Assembly (NCBI GenBank): GCA_964589485.1
Contig: CAZPRK010000005.1
Coordinates: forward strand, 1 to 64,000
Reading direction: 5' to 3'
Length of the DNA stretch: 64,000 nucleotides
DNA from: an uncultured Methanosarcinales archaeon
GTDB lineage: Archaea > Nanobdellota > Nanobdellia > Woesearchaeales > CAYSVS01
Part shown: one piece after another, positions 1,418 to 20,207 of the stretch
Layout: each line of letters opens with the position of its first letter
Numbering within the stretch: the first letter of the stretch is position 1
The notes under the pieces: model-generated
Databases searched by the model: none
Told to the model about the DNA's origin: nothing
The model's input: the letters and a program-made list of their open reading frames with translations, nothing else
Translations under genes and position numbers: made by a program

Positions 1418-3319
1418 TTGATGGTTTTTGATGATTTTATTAAAGAAGTAAAAAAATACAATCCAAATGCGAATTCTGATTTAATTAGAAAGGCTTATAA
1501 TTTTTCAAAAGAAGCACATAAAGGTCAAAAAAGAATTTCTGGGGATGATTATTTTGTTCATCCAGTAGGTGTAGCTGAAATTTTAATTAAATTGAGAGCA
1601 GATACTGCTACAATTTGTGCAGCTTTATTACATGATGTCCCTGAAGATACTAAAGTTACAATTAAAGAAATTGAAGAAAAATTCGGAAAAGAAATTGAAG
1701 ATTTAGTTCAAGGAATGACTAAATTTAAAAAAATTACATTTATAAAAAAAGAAGATTATAAAGCCGAAAATTATAGAAAAATATTATTAGCTAGTTCTAG
1801 AGATATTAGAGTTATGCTAATCAAATTAGCAGATAGATTACATAATATGAGAACATTAAAAGATTTAAGACCAGATAAACAAAAACGTATAGCTGAAGAA
1901 ACAATGACAGTATATGCACCAATTGCATATAAGTTAGGTGTAGGTTACATTAAGGGTGAATTAGAAGATTTAAGTTTAAGATATTTAGAACCAAAAGTAT
2001 ATCAATACTTAAAAGCTAAAATTTCAGAAAAAAGAGATGAAAGAGAAACTAAAACTCAAAACATTATAAAACAAATTAAATATTTAATTAAAAAAAATAA
2101 TATTCATGCTGAAGTTACAGGTAGAGCAAAATATTTCTATAGTATTTATCAAAAAATGAAAAAAGATAATAAAACTTTTAATGATATATTTGATTTAATT
2201 GCTGTAAGAATTATTACAGATACTCCTAAAAATTGTTATAGAGTTTTTGAATTAATTCATAATAAATGGGACCCTGATTTAGGAAGGTTCAAAGATTTTA
2301 TTGAAAACCCAAAACATAATGGATATCAATCATTACATACAACTGTTCTTGGTCCATATAATAAAAAGCTAGAAATCCAAGTAAGAACTAAAGATATGCA
2401 TGATTTTGCAGAGGAAGGTGTTGCTGCACATTGGAAATATAAAGGAACAGAAAAAGATAGAAAATTCGAAAAGAAAATTAGATGGATTAAACAATTACTT
2501 GACTGGAAAAGAACAAATAAAGATGCAATTGAAGTTATAGAAGATCTAAATATTGATTTATTTGCAAACGAAATTATAACGTTTACACCTTCAGGTGATC
2601 CTATTTCTCTCCCACTAAATGCAACTCCTGTTGACTTTGCATATGCAGTCCATACTAACCTTGGAAAAGAATGTAATCAAGCTAAAGTTAATGAAAAAAT
2701 TGTTCCTTTAGATTATCAATTAGATTCTGGGGATTTAGTTGAAATAATTACTAAAAAAAACTCTAAACCTAATAGACAATGGTTAAACTTTGTTAAATCA
2801 TCAATGGCTAAAGCTAAAATTAAACAAGCATTAGGAATGCCTCCAGAAAAACCAAAAAAAGATATCGATATAGATGAAAGAGAACAATTAATTCTTTCAG
2901 AACATATAGAAATAAAAGGAAAAAAATATCCACTTAAAATAAGTAAATGTTGTAAACCTAATAAAAAAAATAAAATTGTTGGTTTCTTAACAAAAGATAA
3001 AAAAATTACAGTACATAATCAAGAATGTTTTATCATGAAAAATGAAAAAAATAAAGTTGAATTAAATTGGATTAAACTTGAAGATAAATATGAAAAAGAA
3101 TTTGTAGTAGTTGCTAACGATACACCTGGTTTTATTAAAGAAGTTTTAAACGTAATCACTAGAGCAAAAGTTTTAATTAAATCTATTAATACAAGAAACT
3201 CAAAGGGACATATTGTTTTAGAATTAAAAGTTCATTCTACAGATGAATCTTTATTAAAAGATATTCTTAGAAAAATTAGAAGATTTCAAGAAAGTCTAGA
3301 TGTAAGATTAAAAAAATAA
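1418..3319 (+). CDS. rel: long RelA/SpoT homolog, bifunctional (p)ppGpp synthetase/hydrolase
   Basis: HD hydrolase (LLHDVPED, IKLADRLHNMRTL), synthetase (YSIYQKM, RFKD, NGYQSLHT, EIQVRT, AAHWKYK), TGS (TPVDFAYAVHT), SKCC zinc finger, ACT-like C-terminus. Confidence 0.93.
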   Translation: MMVFDDFIKEVKKYNPNANSDLIRKAYNFSKEAHKGQKRISGDDYFVHPVGVAEILIKLRADTATICAALLHDVPEDTKVTIKEIEEKFGKEIEDLVQGMTKFKKITFIKKEDYKAENYRKILLASSRDIRVMLIKLADRLHNMRTLKDLRPDKQKRIAEETMTVYAPIAYKLGVGYIKGELEDLSLRYLEPKVYQYLKAKISEKRDERETKTQNIIKQIKYLIKKNNIHAEVTGRAKYFYSIYQKMKKDNKTFNDIFDLIAVRIITDTPKNCYRVFELIHNKWDPDLGRFKDFIENPKHNGYQSLHTTVLGPYNKKLEIQVRTKDMHDFAEEGVAAHWKYKGTEKDRKFEKKIRWIKQLLDWKRTNKDAIEVIEDLNIDLFANEIITFTPSGDPISLPLNATPVDFAYAVHTNLGKECNQAKVNEKIVPLDYQLDSGDLVEIITKKNSKPNRQWLNFVKSSMAKAKIKQALGMPPEKPKKDIDIDEREQLILSEHIEIKGKKYPLKISKCCKPNKKNKIVGFLTKDKKITVHNQECFIMKNEKNKVELNWIKLEDKYEKEFVVVANDTPGFIKEVLNVITRAKVLIKSINTRNSKGHIVLELKVHSTDESLLKDILRKIRRFQESLDVRLKK

Positions 3320-16231: not shown

Positions 16232-16304
16232 TACCTTGTAAAGGGCAGATTACTTATAAAATTAATCCCTGTTCAGTGAATAATAAATAAAGTGGAGAAG
16301 AAAA

Positions 16305-16405
16305 TAGCGAGGGGTGGATTTGAATTCGGCAACAGCTTCTCCATCTGTTTCCACCGACCTGAGGGTTATGAGCCCTCCGGGAACTCCTGACTTCCCTACC
16401 TCGCT
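16305..16405 (-). tRNA. tRNA-iMet(CAT) with 26-nt intron at 53/54 (16325-16350)
   Basis: Acceptor AGCGAGG/CCTCGCT (A1-U72), anticodon arm GAGGG-CTCATAA-CCCTC, T arm GGTGG[intron]TTCAAAT-CCACC; no encoded CCA. Confidence 0.92.
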
Positions 16406-16496
16406 AAATACGAGGGAATACTGGACGTTTATAAAAGTTATGATTAATTCAACTAAAAAACCAATATTTAAAAACAATGAAATATAAAATTATTAA

Positions 16497-17102: not shown

Positions 17103-17246
17103 ATGACAGGTTATGGAATGATGGGAAATCACATGGTAGGAATAGGACTTTTATGGTTGCTTAAAATTGCAGCAGTTGCGTTTATTTTCGGAGTTGTATT
17201 TTGGTGGACTAAACAATTAGTATACAACGAAAAAAGAAAGAAATGA
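17103..17246 (+). CDS. small membrane protein (47 aa, not in ORF track)
   Basis: MTGYGMMGNHMVGIGLLWLLKIAAVAFIFGVVFWWTKQLVYNEKRKK, with GGAGG at 17088-17092. Confidence 0.7.
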   Translation: MTGYGMMGNHMVGIGLLWLLKIAAVAFIFGVVFWWTKQLVYNEKRKK

Positions 17247-17349
17247 AATTATTTTCAAAAAGTATAGTTTAACACCAAAAAAAGGTGTTTTAATTACAGA
17301 ACTTTAGGTTATATAATCTAAGCCAATGATGTTTATGTTAAAACCATAA
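17245..17349 (+). pseudogene. decayed partial duplicate of the HAD gene segment 16883-16988
   Basis: ttattttcaaaaagtatagtttaacaccaaaa...actttagg...aatgatgtttatgttaaaaccata aligns to the upstream gene with substitutions and indels. Confidence 0.8.
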
Positions 17350-17374
17350 AAAAAAGAAACCTTTTTACAATGGT

Positions 17375-17986
17375 TTAATTATTCTTATTTATTGCTTCTT
17401 TTATAATTTTACCAAATGGAGTATCACCCAAAGTAGTTTGAGTTTCTCTAAAAAAATATTTATTAATTGTTTTTTTATCTATAGATTTATTGGCATTACA
17501 TTCTTTAATTAAATCTAAAGAAATATTATTAACAAAATGAAAATTTTCAACTCTTTTTCCTTTTTTTCTAACATATTTCACAAGATAAGAAAAATCACCA
17601 TCGCCACTTATTAATATTGCAGTATCAAATTTATTTTCATATGCATCTCTCAACATATCAATAGCTAAATGAATGTCATCACCTTTTATCGTAAATGTTT
17701 CATTTCCTTCTTTTGTTGTTCTTCTTTGTCTTTTACATAAAATAATTGTTAAATGTTCAATTTTCCTTAATCTTTCAAAAAATAATTGTTGTTGTTTAAA
17801 TAGTTCAGGATCTTTATTTTTTTTCAAAGAAGCATTATAATAATAAATATCAATAAGTTGATTTTTACCAATATAATCTTTTATAAATCTTTCAAAATCA
17901 AATTTGAAATCAGTATATCTTTTATTTATAGATCTTACACCGTAATGAAAATTTGCTCCATCAATAAATACAGATATTCTTGTCAT
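17375..17986 (-). CDS. NYN domain (LabA/DUF88, PIN-like) ribonuclease
   Basis: VFIDGANF, YYY, KGDDIHLAIDML, AILISGDGDF. Confidence 0.92.
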   Translation of the reverse strand: MTRISVFIDGANFHYGVRSINKRYTDFKFDFERFIKDYIGKNQLIDIYYYNASLKKNKDPELFKQQQLFFERLRKIEHLTIILCKRQRRTTKEGNETFTIKGDDIHLAIDMLRDAYENKFDTAILISGDGDFSYLVKYVRKKGKRVENFHFVNNISLDLIKECNANKSIDKKTINKYFFRETQTTLGDTPFGKIIKEAINKNN

Positions 17987-17994
17987 TTTTAAAG

Positions 17995-18090
17995 AAAGTA
18001 CCTACCTTTGCTAAGCAAAGATAGGGGACACTTTTGCAGTATTCTGCAAAGCAGATTCGATCCGAAGATCCAGCACTACCTGATGCTATA
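17995..18090 (-). ncRNA. candidate structured 5' leader RNA (four tandem hairpins) of the NYN gene
   Basis: Minus strand: AGCAT-CAGGTA-GTGCT, GATC-TTCG-GATC, TTTGCAG-AATA-CTGCAAA, CCTATCTTTGC-TTA-GCAAAGGTAGG; TTTAAATA box at 18110-18117. Confidence 0.65.
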
Positions 18091-18202
18091 TGTTTATTAG
18101 ATTAGATTATATTTAAATATTTCCCTAAATAAGTTATAACTAATAATTAGTAACTACTTAAATTTCATTATTAAATTAATTTAATAAAAAAACACCTAAT
18201 CT

Positions 18203-18541
18203 TCAATCTGTTCCAAATAAATCATGTGTCTTTGTACCAAAAAGAGTAGAATATTGGTGTTTTTGATTTGCATCTTGCTCATGAACAACAACATAATTAT
18301 CTAATACAATCTCTAGTTTTTTTAACCCATCTTTATCTTTTCCTGCATAATTAATAATAAAAGGTTCATTTTTATCTACTACAAGCAAATCCTTTCCTTC
18401 TCTACCAATTATAACTTGCGTATCTAATTTTGATAAACCTGAATGTGCAAAGGTTCGGTAATGATCAGCTATAAAAAAAGTTCCCACTCCTACGCTCGCA
18501 AGAAGCGCTCCATAAGATAAACGATTAATTAAACTCCCCAT
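18203..18541 (-). CDS. hypothetical membrane-anchored protein, possibly truncated
   Basis: N-terminal hydrophobic helix followed by a beta-rich segment. Confidence 0.55.
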   Translation of the reverse strand: MGSLINRLSYGALLASVGVGTFFIADHYRTFAHSGLSKLDTQVIIGREGKDLLVVDKNEPFIINYAGKDKDGLKKLEIVLDNYVVVHEQDANQKHQYSTLFGTKTHDLFGTD

Positions 18542-20082: not shown

Positions 20083-20207
20083 CGCCGAGGGAGGGACTTG
20101 AACCCTCGTGCCCCGAAGGACAGTAGATCTTTGTGGACCATTGTAAGTTTCTAATGAACTAAAGTTCATAGCAATCTACCGCAATGGCCAGACTATGCGA
20201 CCTCGGC
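20083..20207 (-). tRNA. tRNA-Ser(GCT) with ~40-nt anticodon-loop intron (20129-20168)
   Basis: Acceptor GCCGAGG/CCTCGGC, G73, anticodon stem GTAGA/TCTAC, long variable arm, T arm GAGGG-TTCAAGT-CCCTC. Confidence 0.92.

Follow-up and report, generated by a model that had tools for sequence, protein, structure and literature searches.

Ahead of a gene for an NYN-domain nuclease, in a 64,000-nt stretch of DNA from an uncultured archaeon (the window), lies a short island of raised GC content. The question raised by this locus is whether the island encodes an RNA with a job to do and, if so, what that RNA does to the nuclease. The original prediction, made from the letters of the window, had proposed that four consecutive hairpins form there on the sense strand, and had headed the locus as a candidate RNA-regulated nuclease or type III-like toxin-antitoxin module. 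A GC scan confirmed the island upstream of the NYN ATG, with a GC fraction of 0.41 at positions 18000–18099 versus 0.13–0.28 in the flanking 100-nt intervals. When the sense strand of 17987–18095 was folded, a free energy of −32.1 kcal/mol was obtained (z −3.17), which none of 200 shuffles equalled, while the opposite strand, used as a control, gave a z of −1.72 and was equalled by 9 of 200. Folding on the sense strand is thus as had been claimed. The parts of the locus are as follows.

18110–18117, minus strand: TATA box TTTAAATA, with a purine-rich, BRE-like stretch ahead of it (from the sequence)
17999–18088, minus strand: whole structured RNA domain, 90 nt, in the order P1, pseudoknot, optional P2, P3, conserved junction, P4
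18072–18087, minus strand: P1 hairpin, AGCAU/GUGCU with loop CAGGUA; 3 of 5 pairs change on both sides, 96.5% of cells paired (98 distinct sequences)
18077–18080, minus strand: 5′ strand of the pseudoknot, GGUA, within the P1 loop (RNAalifold); 4 of 4 pairs covary, 99% of cells paired
18059–18070, minus strand: P2 hairpin, GAUC-UUCG-GAUC, present as an insert in some copies; covariation at 3 of 4 pairs (16-copy alignment)
18043–18055, minus strand: P3 hairpin, UCUGC-UUU-GCAGA (18051–18055 with 18043–18047); 5 of 5 pairs change on both sides, 98.8% of cells paired
18038–18041, minus strand: 3′ strand of the pseudoknot, UACU, one base past P3 (RNAalifold and covariation)
18026–18037, minus strand: unpaired junction from the pseudoknot to P4, family consensus ...CcGCnannGURuuCCC, with positions conserved at 97% or more (98 distinct sequences)
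18001–18025, minus strand: P4, a hairpin of 11 bp with a U-rich tail behind it; 7 of 10 modelled pairs change on both sides, 97.4% of cells paired
17987–18000, minus strand: short A/U-rich linker from P4 to the start codon, with no Shine-Dalgarno-like motif (from the sequence)
17375–17986, minus strand: NYN-domain nuclease gene, 203 aa plus stop (Pfam PF01936)

The window consists of A/T-rich archaeal DNA and includes an intron-bearing tRNA, with archaeal-type ribosomal protein genes near the locus. ARAGORN found no tRNA in the window. Rfam 15 was searched at three levels, and no match was returned for the window at gathering scores, for the leader at E values up to 10, or for the RNA of eight diverse homologous loci at E values up to 1. 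The Rfam check proposed with the original prediction therefore gave no family for the leader RNA. Identification of the island as a D-arm, a split tRNA, a C/D-box RNA or an H/ACA RNA was considered by eye and dropped, as was a pairing of the GUGUUCCC junction with the first codons, whose register varies among copies and which several homologues lack. Tandem Repeats Finder reported no array within 17999–18088 and only low-scoring A/T-rich repeats elsewhere.

DNA similarity searches with the leader returned the leader itself as the sole match in its own genome, and short chance matches (best 22 nt, E 0.002) across 61 genomes (60 relatives and its own). Because these searches failed to reach relatives, homologues were sought via the protein. 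An NYN match of some kind was present in 119 of 201 genomes of the order, with close matches in just three of them (G183, 65% identity; G080, 60%; G047, a 39-aa remnant), and in all three a homologous leader lies behind a TTTAAATA-type box. Scanning species-representative genomes with the protein added 10 close homologues, every one of them with the RNA. A first degenerate DNA pattern proved too loose, collecting at least 119 stretches that were mostly chance bacterial matches scoring no more than 20.3 bits. A degenerate RNA pattern yielded at least five further genomic copies, and a tighter pattern applied to metagenome contigs gave 42 loci, 31 of which scored 63.6–92 bits with the covariance model and the other 11 at most 26.7 bits or no score. 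In all, 98 distinct RNA copies were gathered, from Woese-, Pace- and Nanoarchaeota contigs. The DNA of G183 is identical to that of L045/L282, and G133 and G113 were counted solely in the NYN tallies over the 201 genomes.

A first, model-free alignment of 16 copies was built with MAFFT and given to RNAalifold, which recovered P3, P4 and an unexpected long-range helix between GGNA of the P1 loop and UNCC, one base past P3. With P1, the pseudoknot, P2, P3 and P4 taken together, 95.7% of cells in this alignment were paired and 20 of 28 pairs carried compensatory changes; none of 500 shuffles did as well, and slid controls reached at most 6 such pairs. A second alignment held 99 copies (98 distinct) from 100 sources, fitted to model R1, and left out L231, L239, L245, L246, L247, L248 and L249 as well as exact duplicates. 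Here 97.7% of cells were paired and 19 of 24 pairs showed compensatory changes, with the counts for P1, P3 and P4 leaning towards the model because the alignment was fitted to these helices. The covariation score was 0.477 versus 0.175 for shuffles, none of 500 of which reached it, and slid controls gave no more than 9 compensatory pairs. The pseudoknot was not part of the alignment-building model, yet 99% of its cells are paired and all four of its pairs covary; its middle pair is GC in 69 sequences, UA in 25 and CG in 3. The four-pair pseudoknot (18077–18080 with 18038–18041) was absent from the original prediction.

The leader is therefore a conserved structured RNA family, made up of three nested helices (P1, P3 and P4), a pseudoknot and an optional P2, the last present in 6 of 16 copies of the first alignment and in 10 of the 98 distinct sequences of the second. 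Across those 98 sequences the RNA is 69–137 nt long (median 77), and in a second major variant P3 reads GUC-UUCG-GAC. The homologous RNAs are single units, like the window copy, which scored 71.8 bits with model R1 (E 4.9e-15) and 57.8 bits with model R2. Conservation of unpaired positions at the level seen in the junction is as expected of a specific binding surface. Three of the four hairpins originally proposed (18072–18087, 18059–18070 with its UUCG loop, and 18001–18025) had been placed at the right coordinates, and all three have compensatory changes in homologues. The remaining one, at 18033–18050, did not survive: it shows no covariation, is paired in 71.4% of cells and is matched by 254 of 500 shuffles, and P3 is the conserved helix in that region. 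The TTTGC...GCAAA element noted as common to two hairpins is a property of the window copy and is lacking in other copies.

This RNA family is previously undescribed, with no Rfam family and no published description found. A literature search covering NYN-linked structured RNAs, riboswitch candidates in archaea and DPANN, and type III systems together with NYN found no description of the RNA. To our knowledge, few structured regulatory RNAs of archaea have solid covariation behind them, and hardly any have been described for DPANN. DPANN lineages cannot be grown alone. Since it comes with some hundred natural variants, a pseudoknot and an evident partner gene, the family lends itself to direct tests with a small recombinant protein and an ~80-nt RNA.

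The placement of the RNA is conserved as well. In 36 of 43 unique homologous loci a TATA-like box precedes the model start by 26–30 nt, which puts the expected 5′ end of the transcript at P1; in the window, the TATA box position predicts a start at ~18087–18089. Both the box at 18110–18117 and the placing of the promoter at the first hairpin, and not beside the ATG, are thus upheld by the homologues. A palindrome at 18132–18141, also part of the original prediction, does exist, but by eye it has no counterpart in the homologous upstream sequences inspected. At the other end, the gap between model end and ATG is 6–12 nt in 56 of 59 intact loci, with a Shine-Dalgarno-like word in only 1 of the 59; such tight spacing is expected if the RNA acts in cis on initiation. 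P4 and its tail form the sole terminator-like site in 17200–18300. P4 is followed by a T-run of at least 5 in 14 of 43 loci and by one of 4 or fewer in 29 of 43, and at L277 a T8-rich tract and ~175 nt lie between the RNA and the gene. The ATG region is predicted to be no more than moderately accessible (median unpaired probability 0.46), so that folding gives no clear on/off picture.

The protein encoded downstream is an NYN protein, as originally identified (88.6 bits with PF01936 against a cut-off of 24.2, E 7.6e-25). Among Pfam matches at E values up to 0.01, NYN was the sole one above its cut-off, and neither of two sub-threshold matches was ToxN-type. The AlphaFold model (pLDDT 90.8) had its best Foldseek matches in 2qip (E 1e-11) and the MARF1 NYN domain (1e-7), a resemblance also found by profile (E 8.8e-8), and D9, D26, D103, D121, D129 and D131 are invariant among 27 homologues. 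The protein is accordingly predicted, from this model, to have an intact PIN-like alpha/beta NYN RNase fold with a conserved Asp pocket. It shares its fold with VPA0982 (PDB 2qip) and the MARF1 NYN domain (5yaa, 6fdl); 2qip has no assigned function, whereas MARF1 is a eukaryotic multi-domain protein with LOTUS domains, unlike the window protein. We know of no cognate leader RNA for either.

The association of RNA and gene was assessed from the protein side with a profile of 27 intact homologues, by which 80 loci were picked on protein alone, 79 of them within the subfamily (42–67% identity). The RNA lies upstream on the same strand in 77 of these 79. One exception, L317, is a subfamily locus lacking the RNA; the other, L322, has a different leader before its NYN gene and an orphan RNA copy on the other (minus) strand, with no ORF of 40 aa or more after it. 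By contrast, the RNA was absent at all 59 loci with distant NYN genes (best score 14.1 bits), and the second NYN gene of the window's own genome, on contig C10, gave no match to the RNA model. From the RNA side, in a set that was mostly RNA-selected, NYN sequence follows directly downstream in 36 of 43 unique loci, and the NYN nuclease is the only recurrent downstream gene. Five loci are orphans (L205, L210, L225, L228 and L234), in which the RNA and its promoter are present and the NYN gene is absent downstream; intact orphan RNAs with promoters score 67–89 bits. At two further copies the downstream NYN remnant is just 25–37 aa, and two genomes (G116, 86% complete; G047, 99% complete) have the RNA without an intact subfamily NYN gene. 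The RNA is, in short, near-exclusively tied to one NYN subfamily. Because the RNA is real, conserved, structured and tied to this NYN gene, the first half of the original heading, an RNA-regulated nuclease, is a fair one. The checks set beforehand to overturn the original prediction all turned out in its favour: homologues keep the structure, the promoter lies at the first hairpin, and the RNA is single-copy and no dispersed MITE or REP.

The gene itself shows signs of being an accessory and possibly harmful one. Among 151 sampled genomes of the order, five gave a match to the RNA (the window's own included, and one match weak), and a second sample had the module in 3 of 151 (again including its own). 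The two genomes of the same genus gave distant NYN matches only, and the RNA model had no match in G001, the one of the two that was sampled. When synteny with these two genomes was examined, the 112-aa neighbour was unmatched and the HAD neighbour had one match, at 27% identity. About 13 of the 77 protein-selected NYN copies appear broken, many of them near the 5′ end or at the start codon, although some of these defects may be errors because the sequences are metagenome assemblies. ATG is replaced by AAT in L042, ATA in L047, AAG in L051 and ATC in L236; early frameshifts occur in L046, L049 and L318; and L217/L231 carry an insertion of ~130 nt past codon 13. In G234, the closest relative of the window module, the gene is a pseudogene with a nonsense codon at codon 15 and a frameshift; identity to the window module is 76% in the RNA and 71% in the ORF, too close to tell whether the RNA persists longer than the gene. 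Rearrangements are concentrated at the RNA/ORF junction (L276, L277, L217/L231), and the genes flanking the module are not conserved among homologous loci.

The explanation we favour, tentatively and at somewhat less than even confidence, is that the RNA is the nuclease's own recognition and autoregulatory leader, through which the NYN protein controls its own synthesis by binding or cleavage. We infer that the NYN protein binds or cuts the RNA and that repression is the effect. Transcribed from its own archaeal promoter, the RNA would form the 5′ end of the NYN-nuclease mRNA, and the folded leader would end ~8–14 nt short of a start codon lacking a Shine-Dalgarno motif. NYN protein would bind this leader and may cut it in a conserved unpaired stretch; initiation would then be blocked or the message destabilised, with the enzyme also occupied. 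The outcome would be negative feedback by which a potentially harmful RNase is held low. Taken together, the fixed promoter, the tight spacing to the ATG, the near-exclusive linkage and a compact fold in which unpaired bases are conserved speak for a protein-specific cis operator. The intact predicted NYN fold, the broken copies and the patchy distribution were counted as reasons for restraining the enzyme. If the RNA does restrain the nuclease, the locus would show in what way symbionts with reduced genomes make a dangerous RNase safe to have, and it may represent a toxin-antitoxin or defence architecture of RNA and protein that is new.

Precedents for autoregulation of this kind are the 5′ UTRs of rnc and rne in E. 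coli, the action of Regnase-1 on its own mRNA and the binding of archaeal L7Ae to its own 5′ UTR. As in these cases, a structured element lies by the start codon in the protein's own mRNA and is specific to one protein family, a likeness that extends to the proposed negative feedback on a potentially harmful RNase. The NYN leader differs from them in its new fold (the P1-loop pseudoknot, P3 and P4), its stand-alone NYN protein, its DPANN host and its orphan RNAs, and binding or cleavage is here only putative. Several observations run against a cis leader: the orphan RNAs with promoters, the minus-strand copy at L322, the two loci with a mere NYN remnant, and the long spacer with its T-rich tract at L277. 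A pure cis leader would be expected to decay once its gene is lost, so the orphans count against it, although the losses may be recent. The terminator-like P4, with its longer T-runs in a minority of loci, would likewise suit a separate short RNA.

In a second reading, RNA and nuclease make up a new kind of two-part module in DPANN archaea. Here the single-copy pseudoknotted RNA would be a dedicated inhibitor (antitoxin) or a licensing cofactor of an NYN toxin or defence nuclease, and the orphans would be antitoxins that survived loss of the toxin. We regard this as a possible but rather unlikely account. Were it true, the locus would represent the first type III-like system of this archaeal group, new in both its toxin fold and its RNA architecture. 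Each of the originally proposed roles of the RNA, as substrate, antitoxin or autoregulatory operator of the nuclease, is putative.

The second half of the original heading invites comparison with known type III toxin-antitoxin systems. Type III systems (ToxIN, CptIN, TenpIN) have as hallmarks a tandem-repeat RNA antitoxin upstream of a ToxN/AbiQ, CptN or TenpN toxin, with a terminator between the two by which the RNA:toxin ratio is set; the toxin cleaves its RNA to size and is in turn inhibited by it. The module resembles them in having one promoter, a pseudoknot-forming RNA, a hairpin with a U-tract and a gene for an endoribonuclease (here a predicted one), and also in its patchy distribution and in the other toxin-antitoxin genes nearby. 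It differs in that there is no tandem repeat array, the nuclease is NYN and not of the ToxN/AbiQ, CptN or TenpN type, and the RNA abuts the start codon. Both defining features that can be tested in sequence are thus missing, and membership in the type III systems is not supported.

A looser, type III-like pair for toxin-antitoxin or defence function would work as follows: most transcripts would stop at the U-rich tract past P4, the excess of free RNA of ~80–95 nt would inhibit the NYN toxin in trans, and read-through would supply the toxin mRNA. We consider this unlikely. The orphans, the U-tracts and the toxin-like decay of the gene near its 5′ end keep such a trans-acting antitoxin alive as a reading, and the sole terminator-like site, the tract and spacer at L277 and the patchy distribution are in keeping with it. 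So are the neighbours, since HepT/MNT, AbiEii, Fic/DOC, PIN-like and PLD-helicase genes were found in 4 of the 7 loci examined. On the other side stand the RNA's single copy and lack of a repeat array, a fold that is NYN and not ToxN-like, the short T-runs at most loci, and a fixed spacing to the ATG that a trans-acting RNA would not need. The window module's own neighbours resemble housekeeping genes, which speaks against a defence pair.

For a role in defence, suggested in the original prediction, the evidence is circumstantial and consists of the toxin-antitoxin genes beside some copies and of the best PADLOC match, HEC-09, whose profile (positions 1–186 of 203) covers residues 1–181 of the window protein, nearly its full length (E 6.6e-22). 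HEC-09, an NYN gene proposed for defence, was defined in bacteria, where it lies within Hma systems and has an HTH-like part at its N terminus; it is reported to have given no protection against the phages tested (bioRxiv 10.1101/2024.01.29.577857), which weighs against a defence pair. The accessible part of that source mentions no RNA associated with HEC-09. HEC-09 and the window protein both resemble the MARF1 NYN domain. One may speculate that a missing RNA partner is one possible reason why bacterial NYN candidates like HEC-09 were inactive when tested. A Pfam scan of flanking ORFs at eight homologous loci, with the window's own neighbours scanned in part, found no Hma genes.

That the pseudoknotted domain is instead a riboswitch, binding a small molecule and controlling NYN by termination at the U-tract or by blocked initiation, seems improbable to us; if the RNA does bind one, it would represent a new archaeal riboswitch class. 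A compact, covarying pseudoknot fold with highly conserved unpaired nucleotides is what such an RNA might look like; its place is the 5′ end of the mRNA, immediately ahead of the ATG, and P4 with its U-tail could serve as an expression platform. The regulated set, however, would be a single gene family encoding a nuclease, with no metabolic or transport genes, and orphan copies persist with no gene to regulate. No Rfam riboswitch was matched. A conserved alternative pairing was not found either: the hairpin at 18033–18050, the obvious competitor of P3 and the pseudoknot, lacks covariation and, by eye, cannot form in the GUC/GAC variant of P3.

Least probable among the functional readings, and in our judgement very doubtful, is an RNA that has an independent function, as a small RNA, a ribozyme or a component of a mobile unit, and simply accompanies the NYN gene. 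The high-scoring intact orphans with promoters, the rearrangements at the RNA/ORF junction and a direct repeat of ~31 nt, read by eye, on both flanks of the orphan in G116 (L205) would fit such an RNA. Against it are the near-obligate linkage and fixed spacing to the NYN start codon, its occurrence as a single copy per genome, the lack of a match to any Rfam ribozyme class and the absence of flanking repeats bounding the module in the window. Chance hairpins in a GC-richer spacer, or a dispersed repeat of the MITE/REP kind, are ruled out for practical purposes by the covariation, by the kept promoter and spacing, and by the single copy of the leader RNA that BLAST and the covariance model found in its own 1.16-Mb genome.

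Immediately 3' of the stop codon of the NYN gene in the window, positions 17343-17376 (-) hold a hairpin (AAACC...GGUUU) and, after it, eight consecutive U, and this arrangement looks like a terminator of the NYN transcript.

At two homologous loci (L217 and L231), an insert of ~130 nt, lying ~45-160 nt past the RNA, splits the NYN ORF after approximately codon 13; it contains inverted repeats and resembles a small mobile element or an intervening sequence. At a further locus (L276), the RNA and the NYN gene are separated exactly by a small ORF (89-346) encoding a cysteine-rich, membrane-anchored product of 85 aa, and the start region of the NYN gene is duplicated. The NYN gene at L322 (1180-1752 (+), 42% identity) has a different leader, which consists of a single hairpin. 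Convergent with this gene is an orphan pseudoknot RNA, that is, a copy with no NYN gene downstream (1809-1945 (-)), whose P2 site holds an insert of 60 nt.

Other copies of the RNA were also found without an NYN gene. An orphan at L205 (genome G116, contig C28) lies, together with its promoter, between the two copies of a direct repeat of ~31 nt identified by eye (~1437-1467 and ~1637-1667), which could be the scar of an insertion or rearrangement. At L208 (genome G150, contig C18), a decayed relic of the RNA (1501-1589 (-), 28.7 bits) is followed by a TATA box and then by a HIT-like ORF. Elsewhere, an RNA-NYN module adjoins an archaeal SRP RNA (L296, 1890-2151 (-)), which scored 89.7 bits, slightly under the Rfam gathering score of 96.5.

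Two tRNA-like features were also noted in the window:

20083-20207 (-), tRNA gene with a ~42-nt insert in the anticodon region (Rfam tRNA)
~16300-16420 (-), second GC island (0.53 GC), with one ORF on either side

The first was called neither by ARAGORN nor by Rfam in gathering mode, and matched Rfam tRNA in a sensitive search (40.4 bits, E 3.4e-6). The GC island was called by none of the tools and showed no notable fold in single-sequence folding (z -0.3 and -0.6). On visual inspection, it resembles a tRNA whose anticodon loop is CUCAUAA (anticodon CAU) and whose T-arm contains an insert of ~25 nt, which would be a non-canonical intron.
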